DNA of 64,000 nucleotides from a virus, in IMG/VR virus record IMGVR_UViG_3300035703_004076, positions 4,181-68,180 of that record; one strand, written 5' to 3'. Each line of letters begins with the position of its first letter. Position 1 is the stretch's first letter. Below, in pieces: positions 3,303-63,068 of the stretch. A program made the translations under genes and the position numbers. Under the pieces are notes generated by a model. The model was given only the letters and a program-made list of their open reading frames with translations. It made no database searches and was not told the DNA's origin.

Positions 3303-5984
3303 CTAAGAGCCTCTATTTTCTAACGCAGCTATTTTTTGTTGCAGAGTTTTTATCTGCTCTTGTTGCTCTTTGATTGCTGTTATCAAGTATGGAACAAGCC
3401 CTGAATAATTTACTGACTGATATATTTTTTGCCCATCTTTCTCTTCATCCTTGTTGCCATCAACCACAGAAGGAATAACTTCTGCCACTTCATGTGCAAT
3501 AAGTCCGCAAATTTTTTCATCTCGGACTGTACCATCAAAGTCTTTAGGATTGTACATGACTGGTCTTAATTGACTTATGAGTGCTAGGCTTGCATCAACC
3601 GACTCTACGTTTGCTTTTAGTCTATAGTCTGATGCTGTTCCTAAAACAACTTTATTAACATTGTCTACATGGCCATAAATGTATGGAGATGCCCAAGTCA
3701 GAGCAATCCAGTTACCGGCGGTACCGTGCGATGTTGCTACGGTAGGATATGCAATTCCTTCACCTCTTACTATACTTCTCCATGAACCTATAGTATTGTC
3801 TATATCCGCATTTCCGAATGACCTAAGGTATGAGGCATACAGCGAACCGCCCACAGTAAATTCGTTTGTCTCTAAATTTATTTGCACTGGATATGGGGGA
3901 CCAAGCCAAGATGTTGTGTTACTGCCAGTACCTCTGAGAATGTATAGTATATTACTATTGCAGTGTATCATAGCACTGCGATTGTCTGTGTCTTTGAAGT
4001 GAATGGTAGGTGCCGAGTTGTTGATGGTAAAATTTCCAGCAATATCTAAATTGCCTGTATCGGCCAAGAACATACGTTGATATGCACCGCCAGAGGCCGG
4101 ATAGCTCCAGAACCCTAGCCCATTTCCGTACTGCCCTGTCATGTTATAAATTGTCCAGTTAATTGCAGCAGCACCAGTTTTAGCAGGATTGTATATAATA
4201 ATTCTGCCACCCTCGGCACTATTCACAGATGATGTAATTGAGCCATACACCGTCGAGTCGCCAGATGTTACTGTATGAGCACTAAAATTGATTTGACCTG
4301 TATTGCCTATGGTCATTCGAGTCAAATTGTTTGTGCCAAAAACAATTGGAGTGTTTGCTCTATTCCACATATAGGCTTGATTGTCAGTTCCTTGACCAAT
4401 ATACAATTCCGCAGATGCTGCGTTATTGTTTGCTCGAAATGTTATTGCAGCCGCAGAATTTGTAGGCGATTGAATTGTTATTCGTTCATTCGGTGTCGTT
4501 GTTCCTAAACCAAGTTTTGCTGACGATAAAGGTATATTGAGATTGCCGCCCAGTTGTATGCTGTTTGAGTTTAGGTCAACTTGCAGTGGATGATAGCCGT
4601 TGACTTGTGTCCAGCTTGTTGACCCTTTTGCACCTCTGAGTAAGTAAAACGTACCTGCGGTGTTTAAGAAAAATGCGCTATTAGTTGCTGCGGCAGTATT
4701 TCTATCCAAAAAGCTAATGAGAGGATCTGACGAAGAAATTGACTGATTTCCTTCAAACAAGGCAGATCCCGATACATGAAGTCTTGCTGTAGGAGTTGCA
4801 ACACCAATTCCTACATTTCCTGAGTTTGTAATTTTAATGCCGCTTGCTGACGCTGAGTGAGGTGCCAACACGAGATTTCCTGTGTCTCGACTACCCGCAG
4901 TAAATATCAATCCCTGATCACCCGCAACTGATATAGGATTATAGCTGCCGTTGCCAAGTAATGGCGTAAACCATAGTGCTCTACCGGTAGTGTCTTTGGC
5001 AGTAAACGCTGTTGTAATAATCTGATCTGGTATAGTCGATGTAATACCAGTTGTTCCTAAAACTGACAGTCCTGTGTCTGTAATAATAGCTCTTTGTGTT
5101 CCATCAACATCAAAACCAATATACGAATTTGCTGCAACGTTATCTGGATCTGCTTGTAGTACAACAGCACCTACTGCACCATTACTGCTTATTTGCCCAT
5201 ATACTGTAGAAGCGCCGTCACTATCCTCAAGCCTAATTCTTGGCTGTGCGCTCTTTATATGTAATGTTTGTTGGGGTGATGTGGTTCCTATTCCTACTTT
5301 ACCGTCACTTGTGATTGAAACACGTTCTGTGTTTAGTGTTCCAGAATTCTCATTTGATATGTGAAGTTTTCCATCGTTTGCTTCTGATGTAATGTGCCAG
5401 TTGTTTGTTGTAGTGGCATGAGTTCCTATCTGCACTTTGCTGGCAGAAAACTTTTTAAGACCAGCAAAAGTTTGTTCTTCTATAGTAACAACACCTCTTG
5501 CGGTAGAACTAGCATCAGGAAGATTGATTGTTTTTACTATAGTATTTGCTCCAAGTTCGCCTGAAGCTCCAGCAGCACCTACAGATATGTTAAAGTCTGT
5601 TCCCGAATTGCCCACAACAATATCAATCGCAGTGTTTTTAACAAACTCAACATCATTCTTGAGTGCTCTGTATGATGTTGCGGTGATGACTTGATTATCT
5701 GACGTTGGATTTGCAACAAGTGTAAGTGTGCTAAGATTGAGTGCACCTAAAGTGAGAGTGCTATCGGAGCCAAGAGAGAGTTGTACTGTGGACCAAGTGT
5801 CTGTGCCAGTCTTGCGCTTAAATTGATTTGTTTCTGGATCAAATGCAACGGTGCCTAATGGAACGTTTGTCCACGTACCGTCATTCAAAGATAGCTTTGC
5901 AAGAGCCGCAATCTTGTTGTTGATGAGTGTTACAATTTCGTCCGAAGACTGTGTTTGGAGAGGCTTTGTAAAATCTGCTACCAT
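3303..5984 (-). CDS. Tail fibre protein with C-terminal intramolecular chaperone (peptidase S74)
   Basis: GxVGIGTTxP..LHI repeats; SDYRLKANV...GLIAHEV..V...VNYSGLVPYL + coiled-coil C-terminus. Confidence 0.85.
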   Translation of the reverse strand: MVADFTKPLQTQSSDEIVTLINNKIAALAKLSLNDGTWTNVPLGTVAFDPETNQFKRKTGTDTWSTVQLSLGSDSTLTLGALNLSTLTLVANPTSDNQVITATSYRALKNDVEFVKNTAIDIVVGNSGTDFNISVGAAGASGELGANTIVKTINLPDASSTARGVVTIEEQTFAGLKKFSASKVQIGTHATTTNNWHITSEANDGKLHISNENSGTLNTERVSITSDGKVGIGTTSPQQTLHIKSAQPRIRLEDSDGASTVYGQISSNGAVGAVVLQADPDNVAANSYIGFDVDGTQRAIITDTGLSVLGTTGITSTIPDQIITTAFTAKDTTGRALWFTPLLGNGSYNPISVAGDQGLIFTAGSRDTGNLVLAPHSASASGIKITNSGNVGIGVATPTARLHVSGSALFEGNQSISSSDPLISFLDRNTAAATNSAFFLNTAGTFYLLRGAKGSTSWTQVNGYHPLQVDLNSNSIQLGGNLNIPLSSAKLGLGTTTPNERITIQSPTNSAAAITFRANNNAASAELYIGQGTDNQAYMWNRANTPIVFGTNNLTRMTIGNTGQINFSAHTVTSGDSTVYGSITSSVNSAEGGRIIIYNPAKTGAAAINWTIYNMTGQYGNGLGFWSYPASGGAYQRMFLADTGNLDIAGNFTINNSAPTIHFKDTDNRSAMIHCNSNILYILRGTGSNTTSWLGPPYPVQINLETNEFTVGGSLYASYLRSFGNADIDNTIGSWRSIVRGEGIAYPTVATSHGTAGNWIALTWASPYIYGHVDNVNKVVLGTASDYRLKANVESVDASLALISQLRPVMYNPKDFDGTVRDEKICGLIAHEVAEVIPSVVDGNKDEEKDGQKIYQSVNYSGLVPYLITAIKEQQEQIKTLQQKIAALENRGS

Positions 5985-15620: not shown

Positions 15621-18191
15621 TTAAGCCTTGAGGTAGCTAACGCGGATGCGATCACCACTAACAGGGGCAGTCGAGAACGTAATAGTTCCGCCCGAGATAG
15701 AGTAGTCGTTTCCAACTCCAGGCTCTTGTAAGAGTCCGTTGAGGTAAACGTGCTCGCTGTTCAATACAGGACTGTGTGCTAACGAGAAGTCAGCATTAGT
15801 TCCGTTGATTGTTCCACTTGGAGACTCACGAGTGATAACGTTTGCAACGTAGAGTACAGTAGACTCAAGCGCAGCAATATCAGACTCAGCAGTGTCCATG
15901 CGACCTTCAAGGGCAACAATGTCAGCTTCAGCAGTGTCCATGCGACCTTCAAGGGCAACAATGTCAGCTTCAGCAGTGTCCATGCGGCCTTCAACAGCAT
16001 CAACTTCACCTTGAAGGGAAGTATCAGCAGCAGCACGAGCAACTTCTTCTGCGTCAATCTCAGCTTGAAGAGCACTGTCAGCAGCAATACGAGCGGCTTC
16101 TTCGTCAGACAAGTCTGATGCGAGCGAAGCATCGGCAGCAGCACGAGCAACTTCTTCTGCGTCAATCTCAGCTTGAAGAGCAGCTTCAGCAGCCATAGCT
16201 CTTACTTCTTCTGCATCAACGTCAGCAGCACGGTCAAGAACTTCTTGAGCGAGATCGGCTTCAACAGCATCAACCTCAGCTTGAAGTGCAGCATCGCCAG
16301 CAATACGAGCAGTCTCTTCGTCTGAAATGTCAGAAGCGAGTCCAGCTTCAGCAGCCATAGCACGAGCCTCTTCTGCATCAATGTTACCTTGAAGGGTAAT
16401 ATCAGCAGCGGCACGAGCAGCTTCCTCAGCATCAATCTCAGACTGAAGGGCAGCTTCTGCGCCAAGAGCACGAGTCTCTTCTGCATCAATTTCGCCCTGA
16501 AGCAAAGTATCAGCAGCAGCTCTTGCAACTTCTTCAGCATCAACTTCTGCTTGAATAGCAGCTTCAGCAGCAGCAGCACGAACTTCTTCAGCATCAATTT
16601 CAGCTTGAAGTGCGCCAATTTGTCCAGCTACAGTTGTAGCAAAGTTCTCGTCGCCACCAAGAGCATCGGAGAGTTCTTTGAGTGTATCAAGTACAGCAGG
16701 AGCACTGTTCACAAGAGCAGCGATCTCTGTATCTGTGTAGCTATTAGCACTTGCAAGTACAACAGCATCAGCAGCGATGTAATCAGCTTCTACAGCATCG
16801 ATGTTTCCTTGAAGAACAAGGTCAGCAGCGGCACGAGCAGCTTCTTCTGCATCAACTTCAGCTTGTACTCCAGCAACTGCACTGATACGAGCAGACTCTT
16901 CAGCAGCAATATCAGAAGCCAAATCAGCCTCAGCAGCCATAGCACGAGTCTCTTCTGCGTCTACATCAGCAGCGCGGTCAAGAACTTCTTGGGCAAGGTC
17001 AGCTTCAACAGCATCAACCTCGGCTTGGAGAGCAGCTTCAGCAGCCTCAGCACGAGCTTCCTCAGCATCGATGTTTCCTTGGAGAGTTACATCAGCCGCA
17101 GCTCTTGCAACTTCTTCAGCATCAATCTCAGCTTGGAGAGCAGCTTCAGCAGCCATAGCACGAGTTTCCTCGGCGGTTACGTCAGCAGCACGGTCAAGAA
17201 CTTCTTGTGCAAGGTCAGCTTCAACTGCATCAACCTCGGCTTGAAGAGCTGCATCAGCAGCGGCGCGAGCTACTTCTTCTGCATCAACTTCTGCCTGAAT
17301 AGCAGCTTCAGCAGCCATAGCACGAGTCTCTTCATCAGAGATGTCAGAAGCCAATCCAGCTTCAGCCGCAGTTGCACGAGCAATCTCATCAGCAAGATCC
17401 GACTCAAGAGTAGAAATATCCGACTCAGCAGTGTCCATACGACCTTCAAGAGCAACAATGTCACCCTCGCCGGTTGTCAGACGAGAATCCAAAGCAGAAT
17501 CAGCATTTGTTCGAGCAAGAGTCTCAGCAGCAAGTCCGTTCTCAAGATCGGTTACACGACCATCCATAACAACATCGGCAGCTTCGAGAGCAGCGATGTC
17601 AGACTCAGCAGTGTCTAAACGAACGTCAAGTGCAGCTTCAGCAGCTTCAGCACGAGCAGTTTCGTCAGCAAGGTCAGATGCTACAGCATCAATGTTGCTT
17701 TGAAGGGTTGAATCGGCAGCAGCACGAGCAAGCTCTTCGGCAGCAAGATCAGCAGCGATAGCAGCCTCGGCAGCTTCAGCACGAGCAACTTCAGCAGCAA
17801 GATCGGACTCAAGAGCAACAATGTCACCCTCGGCAGTTGACATACGTCCTTCGAGAGAATCAATATCTCCCTCGGCAGTTGTCATGCGACCTTCGATTGC
17901 GTCAAGTCTTGGATCTAAGTCGTCTTGAACTTGAGCACGAAGAGTCTCCAATCCAGCATCAACGTATGCTTTATTAGCAGCATCGCCTGAAGCAGTTGGT
18001 GTAGCTACGTTTACAACTTTGTTAGAACCAGCGTCTACGTTTCCGGCGAAAGCAACAGATCCATCACGGAGAATGACATCTGCGCCCTGTGCAAGTTTAC
18101 TAAGCTCGATGCCTGCATTAGCAGCAATCTCAACGTTAGTAATCGTTGCGGATTTAATTTGTGTATTACCACGAATTTTGGTTAAAGCCAT
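15621..18191 (-). CDS. Long acidic Ala/Glu-rich coiled-coil fibre (fibritin/whisker-like) with C-terminal RExPxG domain
   Basis: ~650 aa of AEExARAAAD..LQxEIDA repeats; N-terminal TKIRGNTQIK...DAANKAYVD; strongly biased codons. Confidence 0.75.
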   Translation of the reverse strand: MALTKIRGNTQIKSATITNVEIAANAGIELSKLAQGADVILRDGSVAFAGNVDAGSNKVVNVATPTASGDAANKAYVDAGLETLRAQVQDDLDPRLDAIEGRMTTAEGDIDSLEGRMSTAEGDIVALESDLAAEVARAEAAEAAIAADLAAEELARAAADSTLQSNIDAVASDLADETARAEAAEAALDVRLDTAESDIAALEAADVVMDGRVTDLENGLAAETLARTNADSALDSRLTTGEGDIVALEGRMDTAESDISTLESDLADEIARATAAEAGLASDISDEETRAMAAEAAIQAEVDAEEVARAAADAALQAEVDAVEADLAQEVLDRAADVTAEETRAMAAEAALQAEIDAEEVARAAADVTLQGNIDAEEARAEAAEAALQAEVDAVEADLAQEVLDRAADVDAEETRAMAAEADLASDIAAEESARISAVAGVQAEVDAEEAARAAADLVLQGNIDAVEADYIAADAVVLASANSYTDTEIAALVNSAPAVLDTLKELSDALGGDENFATTVAGQIGALQAEIDAEEVRAAAAEAAIQAEVDAEEVARAAADTLLQGEIDAEETRALGAEAALQSEIDAEEAARAAADITLQGNIDAEEARAMAAEAGLASDISDEETARIAGDAALQAEVDAVEADLAQEVLDRAADVDAEEVRAMAAEAALQAEIDAEEVARAAADASLASDLSDEEAARIAADSALQAEIDAEEVARAAADTSLQGEVDAVEGRMDTAEADIVALEGRMDTAEADIVALEGRMDTAESDIAALESTVLYVANVITRESPSGTINGTNADFSLAHSPVLNSEHVYLNGLLQEPGVGNDYSISGGTITFSTAPVSGDRIRVSYLKA
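15886..15994. repeat. 42-bp tandem repeat x2.5 (EGRMDTAEADIVAL, two heptads)
   Basis: cagcagtgtccatgcgaccttcaagggcaacaatgtcagctt repeated at 42-bp period. Confidence 0.9.
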
Positions 18192-54402: not shown

Positions 54403-54679
54403 AACGGCTCCATAACGTAACCAGCACTATTGCTGTATTGATGGCTTCACGTTACAACAGGTAGAGTCAAGTTACAACAGCTAATGTTGAGCGTTATATA
54501 AGAAGCCATTAGATGCGCCTGCTGCGGTGAGTGATTCGCACATATTGCCGAAAATGCAAAAAAACCGTGGTTAAGGCTTGAGTAATAACCAAAACCATAC
54601 GAACATAGTTCTATGAGATGAAACAAGCTCAAGAGCAATTCAGCTAGTGAGTGTGTTTCTGAAAATGAATGGAGAATGT

Positions 54680-55105
54680 ATGAGCGAAATAAACATCAAC
54701 GGCGAAACCCGAGACGTATCTGAACAACACGATGATCAGCGAGAACAGCGACGCCCTCGCGGTCGCCCTCGCGGTCGTAAGCCACGCGGTTTCGGTAATT
54801 ATCAGGGAGCACAGACAAGCACTCACGCAACTCTGAAAATTACAGGTCGCCCAAAGAGTCTAGCTGCACATCGCAAATGGCAGAGAGATTGGGTGATGCC
54901 GCAATTCGTGTTGAGCAGACGACAAGCACAGGATATGCTACTAAAGTACCTGCGTAGCAAGCCAGGAAAGTCCGCGTTGCTATCTGTGATTGAAGATGGT
55001 TTCGTCGGCTTGTCGAAACTACCCGATAACAAACTTGGCGAGTTTCTTGTTAGCACAAACCTGCTGTCAAGATACCCACACGAGATTGTTATTAGAGGTG
55101 CTTAG
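54680..55105 (+). CDS. AT-hook-containing putative DNA-binding protein
   Basis: RRPRGRPRGRKPRG; SD GGAG before MSEI. Confidence 0.7.
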   Translation: MSEININGETRDVSEQHDDQREQRRPRGRPRGRKPRGFGNYQGAQTSTHATLKITGRPKSLAAHRKWQRDWVMPQFVLSRRQAQDMLLKYLRSKPGKSALLSVIEDGFVGLSKLPDNKLGEFLVSTNLLSRYPHEIVIRGA

Positions 55106-55168
55106 TGTGTAATTGAAGGATCACTTTGCTGGCATCAGCAGGGTGATCCATTTTAGAATGGAGGTTTT

Positions 55169-55447
55169 ATGAAGCGTCGTGACCAAGCCACAGTGGAACA
55201 ATTAGCAATCGAATTCCGTCAACTCGATGAAGAGAGACTAGAGCTGGACAGAAGGTGTAGATTTCTCAAGAAACGTATGCACCTGCTGCAAGCGGATATA
55301 CAAGAGTATATTGGAGTCGCAGACAAACTAGACGTGCCACTGGTCACTCGCATTGGCAAGTTCTTCATCACACAGATTAAAAAGCACAGATTTGTGGAGG
55401 CGTATGAGTGTAACTTCGTAGAGTTTAAGATCGTAGAAGAGGGCTAG
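55169..55447 (+). CDS. Coiled-coil + beta-hairpin small protein
   Basis: SD GGAGG; preceded by a 14-bp hairpin at 55118-55149 whose G-U pairs favour the plus strand. Confidence 0.72.
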   Translation: MKRRDQATVEQLAIEFRQLDEERLELDRRCRFLKKRMHLLQADIQEYIGVADKLDVPLVTRIGKFFITQIKKHRFVEAYECNFVEFKIVEEG

Positions 55448-55662
55448 CACATACAGATTTTATTACCCCAACGGCGATGCGTATGAAATACCAATTCAAC
55501 AACAGCTTCTTCAAGTGTCAGAAACTTGCAACTGTACTCAGCACCATTTGGGTACGCAACGAAGAAACTCTCAACATCATCGAATTCAATTTGCCCGATA
55601 CACTCTTGGTTGAGATTGATGTACCAGACACTCTCTTCGATTTCTATTTGGAAATTCTGCAT
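55444..55662 (-). CDS. Small acidic beta protein
   Basis: Start MQNF, 8 nt after GAGGGGGC. Confidence 0.65.
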   Translation of the reverse strand: MQNFQIEIEESVWYINLNQECIGQIEFDDVESFFVAYPNGAEYSCKFLTLEEAVVELVFHTHRRWGNKICMC

Positions 55663-55665
55663 AGT

Positions 55666-55807
55666 AAAAAGCCCCCTCGACCTTCGTGCTCGGAGTGTTG
55701 TGGGAGGGGGCGACCACAACTAGGAGTTTCATCTGAAAAGAAAATGCCCCCTCAGAGGTTTGACCCTCTTGTTTTACTTCTCACCAGCAGGAGGGGGCGG
55801 CTACTGG
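55666..55807 (-). ncRNA. Candidate tandem pseudoknot cis-regulatory RNA
   Basis: Two units, each a 7-bp hairpin with loop YCGCCCCCUC and a downstream GAGGGGGC followed by a U-run. Confidence 0.5.
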
Positions 55808-55853
55808 CGCGGTTTCTTAGTAAAGGTGCGGCTTTACTACATCAAGGAGTGTA

Positions 55854-56120
55854 TTACGATAGAGATGCACCCTGTGAAACCGTCGTACTGTCTGCGATTA
55901 ATGGCTGGAGCGTATATGCACCGCGTCCTGAACGGAAGACCTTGTTGTTAAACAGCCATGTTGCTTCAGCTTGGGTACGGCCCGTAGACTGAAGGAATGC
56001 GATTACTTGTTTTCGTGTTACAATAACGCCTAACTTCTCAACAAACTCAAGAACAAGAGCTTGGCGTTGGCCTGGGTTACGTCCCCAGAGTGAAGCGTCA
56101 GTAGTATTAAGGCTAACCAT
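55854..56120 (-). CDS. Winged-helix-like small protein (..GRG.Y.L)
   Basis: VTRKQV...WL....R.GRGAY.L pattern; SD GGAG. Confidence 0.6.
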   Translation of the reverse strand: MVSLNTTDASLWGRNPGQRQALVLEFVEKLGVIVTRKQVIAFLQSTGRTQAEATWLFNNKVFRSGRGAYTLQPLIADSTTVSQGASLS

Positions 56121-56142
56121 TTTATGTTTCTCCAATTATAGG

Positions 56143-56541
56143 TTACACGTTAATAGGCAAATCATCATCCGATTTGGTTGCGTCAACAGGAAAGTCAACG
56201 ACCAGTGGATCTCCCTTCTTCAGGTGGGGTTTTGCAAATAGCATCGGCTCCGGATACTTCTCGTTCGGGTCGCCTACACCAGTTACAGTTACCTTCAAAG
56301 AGACTTGTGCGTTTACACCATCTTTAGTAAACATATCGAATAGCTTCTCTGAAAAGCCAGAAAAGTAGACGGTGCCAAAATTAGAGTCTTTAACGATGAG
56401 CTTGGCGAGCATCGCAGAACGCATCTGCCCTCTTATTAGCATCGGTGTGCTCTTACACATCACGACATCGGCGCGGTCGAGCATAATCACGACTCGCTTG
56501 CCTTCTTTTACCAATTTCATCACTTCGTCACGATTCATCAT
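56143..56541 (-). CDS. Possible OB-fold protein with acidic C-tail (DDDLPINV)
   Basis: Beta-rich core; own promoter. Confidence 0.6.
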   Translation of the reverse strand: MMNRDEVMKLVKEGKRVVIMLDRADVVMCKSTPMLIRGQMRSAMLAKLIVKDSNFGTVYFSGFSEKLFDMFTKDGVNAQVSLKVTVTGVGDPNEKYPEPMLFAKPHLKKGDPLVVDFPVDATKSDDDLPINV

Positions 56542-56560
56542 AAAATCATCAGCTCGTAAA

Positions 56561-56592
56561 ATTATACTAACAGGGAATGGTTGTGGTTGCAA
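56561..56592 (-). promoter_or_regulatory. sigma70-like promoter TTGCAA-N17-TAGTAT(AAT) with extended TG
   Basis: Seen in sequence. Confidence 0.6.
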
Positions 56593-56597
56593 AGACA

Positions 56598-56620
56598 AAA
56601 TGCCTTTGGGCACCTTTTTT
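56598..56620. terminator. Intrinsic terminator-like hairpin
   Basis: AATGCC-TTTG-GGCACC flanked by A- and T-runs. Confidence 0.55.
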
Positions 56621-62992: not shown

Positions 62993-63068
62993 TGGCGGAA
63001 CCGATGGGACTTGAACCCACGACCTCTCCCGTGACAGGGGAGCGTTCTAACCACTGAACTACGATTCC
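62993..63068 (-). tRNA. tRNA-Asp(GTC), CCA encoded
   Basis: GGAATCGTAGTTCAGTGGTTAGAACGCTCCCCT-GTC-ACGGGAGAGGTCGTGGGTTCAAGTCCCATCGGTTCCGCCA folds as a 76-nt cloverleaf. Confidence 0.96.

Follow-up and report, generated by a model that had tools for sequence, protein, structure and literature searches.

The 64-kb window analysed here is taken from a 68-kb IMG/VR virus record (IMGVR_UViG_3300035703_004076, positions 4,181 to 68,180), and its minus strand contained two RNA units in the 191-nucleotide (nt) gap between a gene for a 93-amino-acid (aa) protein (56135-55854) and a gene for a 72-aa protein (ATG at 55662-55660). Each unit was predicted to fold as an H-type pseudoknot, in which a first hairpin (P1) carries in its loop the C-rich strand (S2a) of a second, G+C-rich helix (S2), and the partner strand (S2b) lies downstream and leads directly into a U-run. 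The same layout was present in all seven phage lineages compared, always between the same pair of genes, which gave 10 non-redundant units. Judged from these sequences, P1, S2, and a small hairpin within unit 1 (H3) are selected pairings of the minus strand, and the U-run and the position of the units are conserved. The units may well be pseudoknotted intrinsic terminators that serve for attenuation ahead of the final gene in a leftward operon.

Anatomy and covariation of the units

Unit 1 spanned 55809-55736 (all unit coordinates are on the minus strand). Its P1 (55782-55809) consisted of 9 base pairs (bp), including two G.U pairs (55809-55801 with 55790-55782), around a 7-bp core of CCAGTAG/CTGCTGG. 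The 10-nt loop of this hairpin (55800-55791) was made up of loop 1 (L1, CC) and S2a, GCCCCCTC (55798-55791). S2b, GAGGGGGC (55753-55746), began 28 nt downstream of P1 and was followed by the U-rich tail ATTTTCTTTT, with strand and tail together occupying 55736-55753. The 5-bp hairpin H3 (AGAGG-GTCAAA-CCTCT, 55754-55769) was located in loop 3 (L3) and abutted S2b. Unit 2 spanned 55720-55663, and its P1 (55697-55720) was GTTGTGG/CCACAAC (55720-55714 with 55703-55697), with a 10-nt loop (55713-55704) composed of L1 (TC) and the same S2a, GCCCCCTC (55711-55704). In this unit, S2b (GAGGGGGC, 55678-55671) began 18 nt downstream of P1 and was followed by TTTTT and ACT (to 55663), which adjoin the ATG of the 72-aa gene. 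Apart from the S2 8-mer with the two bases that flank it, units 1 and 2 had no sequence in common. This tandem layout of hairpins and loop-complementary 8-mers on the minus strand was described in a first-pass annotation of the stretch, and every sequence detail listed there was present and correct, including the U-run after each unit, which was found to be conserved across the 10 units.

The layout was rare by chance. The 8-mer GCCCCCTC and its complement occurred four times in the window, all of them in these units, vs. an expected 0.37, and none of 100 shuffles reached four. A scripted scan for the layout (P1 of at least 7 bp, S2 of at least 7 bp, and a T-run) returned two matches in the window and only one in total over 20 shuffled windows. 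None of 300 shuffles of the intergenic region of the window matched the observed unit quality, and the best unit in the intergenic region of each relative was equalled by 0-1 of 300 shuffles. In other phage loci, which amounted to 989,177 bases, only two unrelated elements passed a strong layout filter. The whole relatives G001 and G002 contained, besides this locus, only one weaker match and one candidate unit, in G002, which was rejected because it lay antisense within a 2738-codon open reading frame (ORF).

Relatives of the locus were found by searches with the flanking proteins and comprised five IMG/VR records (L003, L040, L153, L154, and L159) and two metagenome contigs (L118 and L120). 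L120 was nearly the same as L040, so that seven lineages including the window were counted, and another contig (L119) ended short of the gap. No relative was detected among GenBank phages by megablast or tblastn, and none was found in prokaryote genome contigs; the "provirus" label of the record is without support from any host genome here. The units of the relatives were located by the same script without prior knowledge, at least five T in the 9 nt after S2b being a filter in the search. Two units were present in the window, L118, and L003, and one in L040, L153, L154, and L159; the tandem state, which the annotation had treated as a property of the element, is therefore not conserved. Across the 10 units, P1 ranged from 7 to 9 bp, S2 from 7 to 10 bp, L1 from 1 to 3 nt, loop 2 (L2) from 0 to 1 nt, and L3 from 18 to 44 nt, in each case with a T-rich tail.

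Nine distinct P1 helices and seven distinct S2 helices were observed among the 10 units, all of them fully paired. The S2 helices included GCCCCCTC/GAGGGGGC, GCCCTTC/GAAGGGC, GCCCCTT/AAGGGGC, GGACCCTTG/CAAGGGTCT, and GGCCCCTG/CAGGGGCC. For P1 and S2 alike, the strands belonging to one unit paired at seven of seven positions in every unit, whereas strands swapped between units paired on average at 3.09 of 7 positions (P1) and 5.48 of 7 positions (S2). The earlier observation that the two 7-bp stems of the window differ in sequence yet both pair was thus borne out and extended to nine P1 helices in seven lineages. The loop 8-mer had been called invariant, which holds inside the window; in the relatives, however, it changes together with its partner.

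An alignment of unit 1 (five sequences, 22 pairs) was paired in all of its 110 cells, and six pairs changed on both sides, four in P1 and two in H3. In L003, H3 was ATTGG/CCAAT, with two of its five pairs altered on both sides, and in the S2 partner strand of unit 1 of L118 a C>T change resulted in a G.U pair. The covariation score of the alignment was 0.291 compared with 0.122 in shuffles, of which none of 500 reached the observed value, and controls with slid partners were 40-54% paired. G.U pairs accounted for 21 of 165 pairs across the units, and no equivalent unit was found on the antisense strand of L118, L153, L154, or L159, which together indicate that the folding molecule is the gene-sense RNA.

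The units correspond to the classical H-type pseudoknot in that a hairpin loop pairs with a 3' single strand, with both helices supported by covariation, and P1 and S2 have no base in common. According to the coaxial-stacking rule of Pleij and colleagues, such a knot has a short L1 over the deep groove, an L2 of 0-1 nt, and an L3 long enough to cross P1, and the loop lengths of all 10 units fit these proportions. In every unit, the P1 loop is occupied by S2a apart from 1-3 nt 5' and 0-1 nt 3' of it, and L3 is long, which argues that the knot is truly of the H type. The separate formation of P1 and of S2 is shown by covariation, and the geometry suggests that they form jointly.

Proposed termination and attenuation, and competing explanations

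During RNA synthesis, P1 would fold first, and its loop would present the C-rich strand that makes up the 5' side of the terminator helix. The emerging G-rich 3' strand would then pair with this loop to form S2, a G+C-rich helix of 7-10 bp immediately before the U-run. Because L1 is only 1-3 nt long and L2 0-1 nt, P1 can stack on S2, and the two would make up one quasi-continuous helix of 14-18 bp. Bacterial RNA polymerase is released by a G+C-rich helix placed in this way right before a U-run. All 10 units had such a helix directly before a U-tract on the transcribed strand, and besides the knot this was the sole feature that they had in common. The duplex energy of S2 was -10.8 to -20.1 kcal/mol (nine units computed). 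A fraction of the polymerases would stop at the units, and the extent of transcription into the 72-aa gene, and into the convergent genes farther on, would thereby be set. The knotted 3' end left on the upstream mRNA may also protect that mRNA, as in the small RNA RydC, and in the window only, unit 2 would in addition cover the start region of the 72-aa gene.

We infer the step from S2 and the U-run to termination, and likewise the role as an attenuator, from this arrangement. No sigma-70-type promoter was called between the unit and the gene in the window, L003, or L040, and this, together with the position of the units before the last gene of the operon, points to attenuation. Two sequences noticed by eye in the interval between unit and ATG of L003 and L040 (TTGCTT-17-TATAGC and TTGCGC-17-TATAGG) were considered as promoters and dropped, as the scan did not call them. 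An ordinary hairpin terminator was called at 54228-54200 in the same phage, which indicates that termination signals of the host type are in use there. The first-pass annotation had left four options for the element, namely a riboswitch, an attenuator, a nuclease-blocking element, and a protein-binding RNA; attenuation is the best reading among these and is held with moderate confidence, whereas a riboswitch is very unlikely.

Several points weigh against termination by the units. The terminator scan did not call the unit sites, because the strands of S2 are 25-51 nt apart and the loop limit of the scan is 8 nt. The units are likewise not the simple hairpins with loops of 3-8 nt that characterize canonical Rho-independent terminators, and long-loop terminators are held to be inefficient. 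A plain terminator gives no reason for selection on P1, and a promoterless gene behind a terminator suggests regulation rather than a simple stop. The nested minimum free energy of the window region was unexceptional (z = -1.24; 23 of 200 shuffles folded as well), and z ranged from -0.8 to -1.4 across the regions folded, including the window, L118, and L003; an unremarkable nested energy is expected for a pseudoknot, and energy alone proves nothing. Nested folds with P1 only and with S2 only differed by 0.7-4.6 kcal/mol (nine units folded), and these close energies mean that the two helices might alternate rather than coexist. Merely alternating helices would not need the loop proportions described above. 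Finally, the seven lineages all belong to one phage group and represent one locus, and thus form a small and related sample.

It is possible, although we put it forward only tentatively, that the units constitute a distinct structural class of factor-independent terminator, a "pseudoknot terminator" equipped with a presenting hairpin. The presenting hairpin would speed the folding of the long-range helix enough to stop the polymerase, and it would give a phage factor a means of turning the stop off. Such switching is the substance of the main rival explanation, a regulated antitermination switch, in which a phage or host protein or a small RNA would bind the P1 loop, block S2, and allow timed read-through into the 72-aa gene. 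This switch would explain why a gene without a called promoter lies behind the units. P1 shows a strand in its loop, a form suited to recognition, and in all units S2a is the C-rich strand and starts with G/A-C-C-C; however, the loop sequence varies (seven S2 variants), which speaks against a single sequence-specific binder. In the window, where the 8-mers are identical, the G-rich strand of unit 1, if free, could pair with the C-rich loop of unit 2, so that both units might flip jointly, and in the nested centroid fold of the region S2b of unit 1 is indeed joined to S2a of unit 2. This cross pairing was absent from the centroid folds of L118 and L003, and four lineages have only a single unit. 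The structural model of the upstream protein resembles a winged helix in the order of its elements, a point in favour of the switch, but no known RNA-binding family was assigned to either flanking protein, and neither of them matched a structure at E <= 0.001.

In the guanidine-IV (mepA) riboswitch, by its generally understood mechanism, the loop of an upstream hairpin takes part in a long-range contact involving the terminator. That contact is loop-to-loop and ligand-dependent and includes conserved aptamer bases, whereas the loop of the present units is itself one strand of the terminator helix, and none of their unpaired bases is conserved. As a case of control by a hairpin loop in contact with a terminator, guanidine-IV riboswitches (PMC11611296) are a precedent for the antitermination switch. 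Taken together, regulated antitermination appears unlikely, though it is the most serious rival to the terminator and attenuator reading.

The position of unit 2 raises the further question of translational control, since the annotation proposed that this unit sequesters a ribosome-binding site. In the window, S2b of unit 2 contains GAGG, and 8 nt separate the 8-mer from the ATG, so that this part of the claim stood for the window. It did not extend to the relatives, in which the last unit ended 14, 17, 21, 26, 54, or 77 nt from the ATG. A translational operator, at which a knot near the start codon blocks the ribosome either constitutively or as the site of an autoregulator (cf. T4 gene 32), would be compatible with the distances of 14-26 nt in L154, L118, L159, and L153, but those of 54 nt in L040 and 77 nt in L003 leave the start region free. 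Moreover, unit 1 of the tandem lineages lies 83-164 nt from the ATG and yet has the same layout and U-run, and an operator gives no role to the conserved U-run. Shine-Dalgarno (SD)-like 4-nt words were found within 22 nt before the ATG of only 19 of 41 minus-strand ORFs of at least 90 aa, leaving 22 without one. From these counts, the host probably relies little on SD pairing, and an SD is not needed here. The downstream protein has no known family or informative structural match.

The leader pseudoknot of T4 gene 32 is similar in being an H-type knot in a phage mRNA leader, with an A/U-rich sequence that lacks structure between it and the start codon (PMC10690425). The present phage also has T4-type baseplate hub and tail-fibre gene families. 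On the other hand, the gene 32 knot is not involved in termination and precedes the gene for a protein that binds single-stranded DNA, whereas an unrelated 72-aa ORFan follows here, and half of the present units are far from any start codon. A translational operator is considered improbable as the general function of the units.

Relation to known RNA elements

The units resemble canonical Rho-independent terminators and leader attenuators in having a G+C-rich helix of 7-10 bp followed by a U-run, on the sense strand and between the genes of an operon. They differ in the distance between the helix strands (25-51 nt instead of 3-8 nt) and in the 5' strand, which is supplied by the loop of a further conserved hairpin and so makes the fold a pseudoknot.

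The nearest precedent is RydC, an enterobacterial small RNA that folds as a pseudoknot and ends in a U-rich 3' tail with a part in Rho-independent termination; its stability in vivo depends on the knot, and Hfq is bound by the U-tail (PMC4337610). It shares with the units a knot that ends in a U-tail. RydC is a stand-alone, Hfq-bound small RNA with a 5' seed, whereas the units lie inside an operon, precede a gene, and may occur in tandem; neither a sequence match nor an Rfam match between RydC and the units was found.

The likeness to RydC suggests that the knot and U-tail might instead serve as a 3' end resistant to 3'-to-5' exonucleases, either that of the upstream mRNA or that of a RydC-like small RNA in which the C/U-rich stretch after the stop codon is the single-stranded 5' part. 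This stretch is 17 nt long and begins with the stop codon that ends the 93-aa gene (TAATACACTCCTTGATG, 55840-55856, minus strand); it resembles an anti-SD sequence and was invariant in four of the five close sequences (the window, L003, L040, L118, and L120), with one change in L118, but it was absent from L153, L154, and L159. A copy of the phage that was at least 99% identical (6 differing letters in 751) was contained in four DNA runs, which came from four studies of fresh water or lakes; this attests to the presence of the phage and not to function. Among the 23 runs listed, none was an RNA run with this sequence. The sole intergenic change in the four DNA runs, 55773 T>C, fell within the unpaired L3. 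No promoter was called upstream of the units, a point against this reading. Termination at the U-run would still be necessary in either form, so that a stability element or small RNA, which has a low probability by itself, complements the terminator and attenuator reading more than it competes with it.

The annotation did not recognize the aptamers of preQ1-II- or SAM-II-type riboswitches in the element, and comparison with Rfam, which gave no matching family, agreed with this. At gathering thresholds, Rfam models matched only a tRNA in the window; a search of a 701-nt region at E <= 10 yielded nothing relevant, including preQ1-II, SAM-II, guanidine-IV, and RydC, and a search of the loci of five relatives at E <= 5 yielded nothing in the intergenic regions. 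PreQ1-II and SAM-II are known pseudoknot aptamers that include the ribosome site or precede a terminator, and like the present units they have a loop paired with a 3' strand that is rich in purines and close to the start codon. An undescribed class of metabolite riboswitch with a pseudoknot aptamer could likewise account for an element to which no Rfam family corresponds. However, the units lack conserved bases of a ligand pocket, and their relation to an SD is not conserved. Both helices vary, L1 occurs as CC, TC, AC, TAA, C, G, GTT, and T, and L3 (18-44 nt) consists of unrelated sequences; even within unit 1, L3 of L003 differs from the others in length and sequence. The absence of a conserved unpaired base across the 10 units makes a metabolite riboswitch highly improbable, and the flanking genes are phage ORFans and not metabolic or transport genes.

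The ToxI RNAs of type III toxin-antitoxin systems also consist of tandem pseudoknot units, with a terminator and a small gene after them. The direct repeats of ToxI are nearly identical in sequence, and a ToxN-type nuclease of about 170 aa cuts them. The present units differ in sequence, and the downstream protein matched no Pfam and no PADLOC family, so that the locus has neither the near-identical repeats nor the ToxN/AbiEii-type toxin gene of a ToxIN system.

In summary of these comparisons, the units work most like an intrinsic terminator or attenuator and are built like the RydC knot with its U-tail, and they are members of neither by sequence or model. A full-text literature search, with most subscription journals outside its scope, returned no description of a pseudoknot-type terminator, and the phrase was met only for the ZTP riboswitch. 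Within the literature searched, the pseudoknot shape is thus not described for such stop signals. Intrinsic terminators in textbooks are simple hairpins, and annotation tools generally seek only those. If the proposed mechanism is true, a terminator whose helix is the stem of a pseudoknot would escape every standard predictor, and RNA polymerase could be stopped or throttled by a tertiary fold. The unit would also be a compact, sequence-programmable part, both helices of which could be changed freely, as has occurred in nature (nine P1 and seven S2 helices). The locus would represent a conserved control point ahead of a functionally uncharacterized small gene in one group of abundant freshwater phages. 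These implications apply to one locus in one phage group.

Flanking genes and minor observations

The window encoded a T4-type baseplate hub, many tail-fibre genes, and a long minus-strand series of small genes. The gene upstream of the units (55854-56135, minus strand; 88-93 aa, referred to here as the 93-aa gene) and the gene downstream (55444-55662, minus strand; 72 aa) both belong to no known family, as neither protein had a match in Pfam, PHROGs, NCBIfam, or PADLOC. The structural models of both proteins were confident (pLDDT 86.7 and 89.7), yet neither had a PDB match at E <= 0.001. The model of the upstream protein has a helix-strand-helix-helix-strand-strand order, a topology like that of a winged helix. 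Protein searches returned 61 clusters of the upstream protein and seven of the downstream protein. The 72-aa gene is the last of the minus-strand operon and is convergent with a plus-strand gene at 55169-55447. Two genes converge on it from the opposite strand just past its end, an arrangement kept in all lineages.

Together, these genes form a five-gene ORFan module (window positions 54647-56613) that is conserved in L003, L040, L153, L154, and L159. The order of the module is a gene of 126-156 aa, the winged-helix-like gene of 87-96 aa, the knot unit or units, the gene of 71-79 aa, and the two convergent genes, the first of 92-104 aa and the second of 128-155 aa with an N-terminal RGRPKG-type (AT-hook-like) motif.

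An additional hairpin of 8 bp with the loop CCGCAC (55818-55839, minus strand), located after the 93-aa stop codon and before unit 1, was part of the centroid fold. Its sequence was identical in L118, L040, and L120 and thus offered no covariation, and the other lineages had a different hairpin at this place. The 17-nt stretch that follows the stop codon was found in IMG/VR in 21 stretches, 19 of which were chance matches in unrelated sequence. Pairing of this 17-mer with the G-rich strands was considered and rejected, as it was not better than that of a shuffled motif (9 of 200 shuffles in the window, 36 of 200 in L118, and 54-128 of 200 in the others).

In 8 of the 10 units, the last paired base of S2b was separated from the ATG that follows by a distance of 2 mod 3 (the window at 55663-55753 and the matching places in L118, L003, L153, and L154), and where a unit abuts the gene, S2b and the U-run read (R/K)-G-L-F in the frame of the gene. 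An in-frame upstream extension of the 72-aa gene through the knot (19-50 codons in four lineages) was rejected, because no common start, and no common peptide beyond that dictated by the helix, was found. A 48-codon ORF (55586-55732, minus strand) starts 13 nt past unit 1 and crosses unit 2 in a frame that differs from that of the 72-aa gene; it was rejected as a leader peptide, because its start codon is absent in L118.

Among the 162 IMG/VR matches listed for the 8-mer pair, three had a flanking stem of at least 9 bp (L003, L040, and L026). L026 was rejected as a relative, since it is an unrelated contig with an ordinary long terminator and an extra upstream hairpin. On its minus strand (about 4880-4960), the loop of this 9-bp hairpin repeats the 5' strand of the downstream long terminator hairpin, an arrangement that may act as a decoy or competitor. 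Four related IMG/VR contigs (L031, L049, L070, and L097) had a knot-like layout in which a 7-bp hairpin carries an 8-nt loop strand with its complement 34 nt downstream, followed by a weak T-run; their sequences were identical and offered no variation to test. Elsewhere in the window, a tRNA-Asp (GTC) gene was located at 62993-63068 (minus strand) amid small early genes, and the G+C content reached 0.506 at positions 16001-18000, inside a tail-fibre-like gene (15621-18191), compared with about 0.41 elsewhere.

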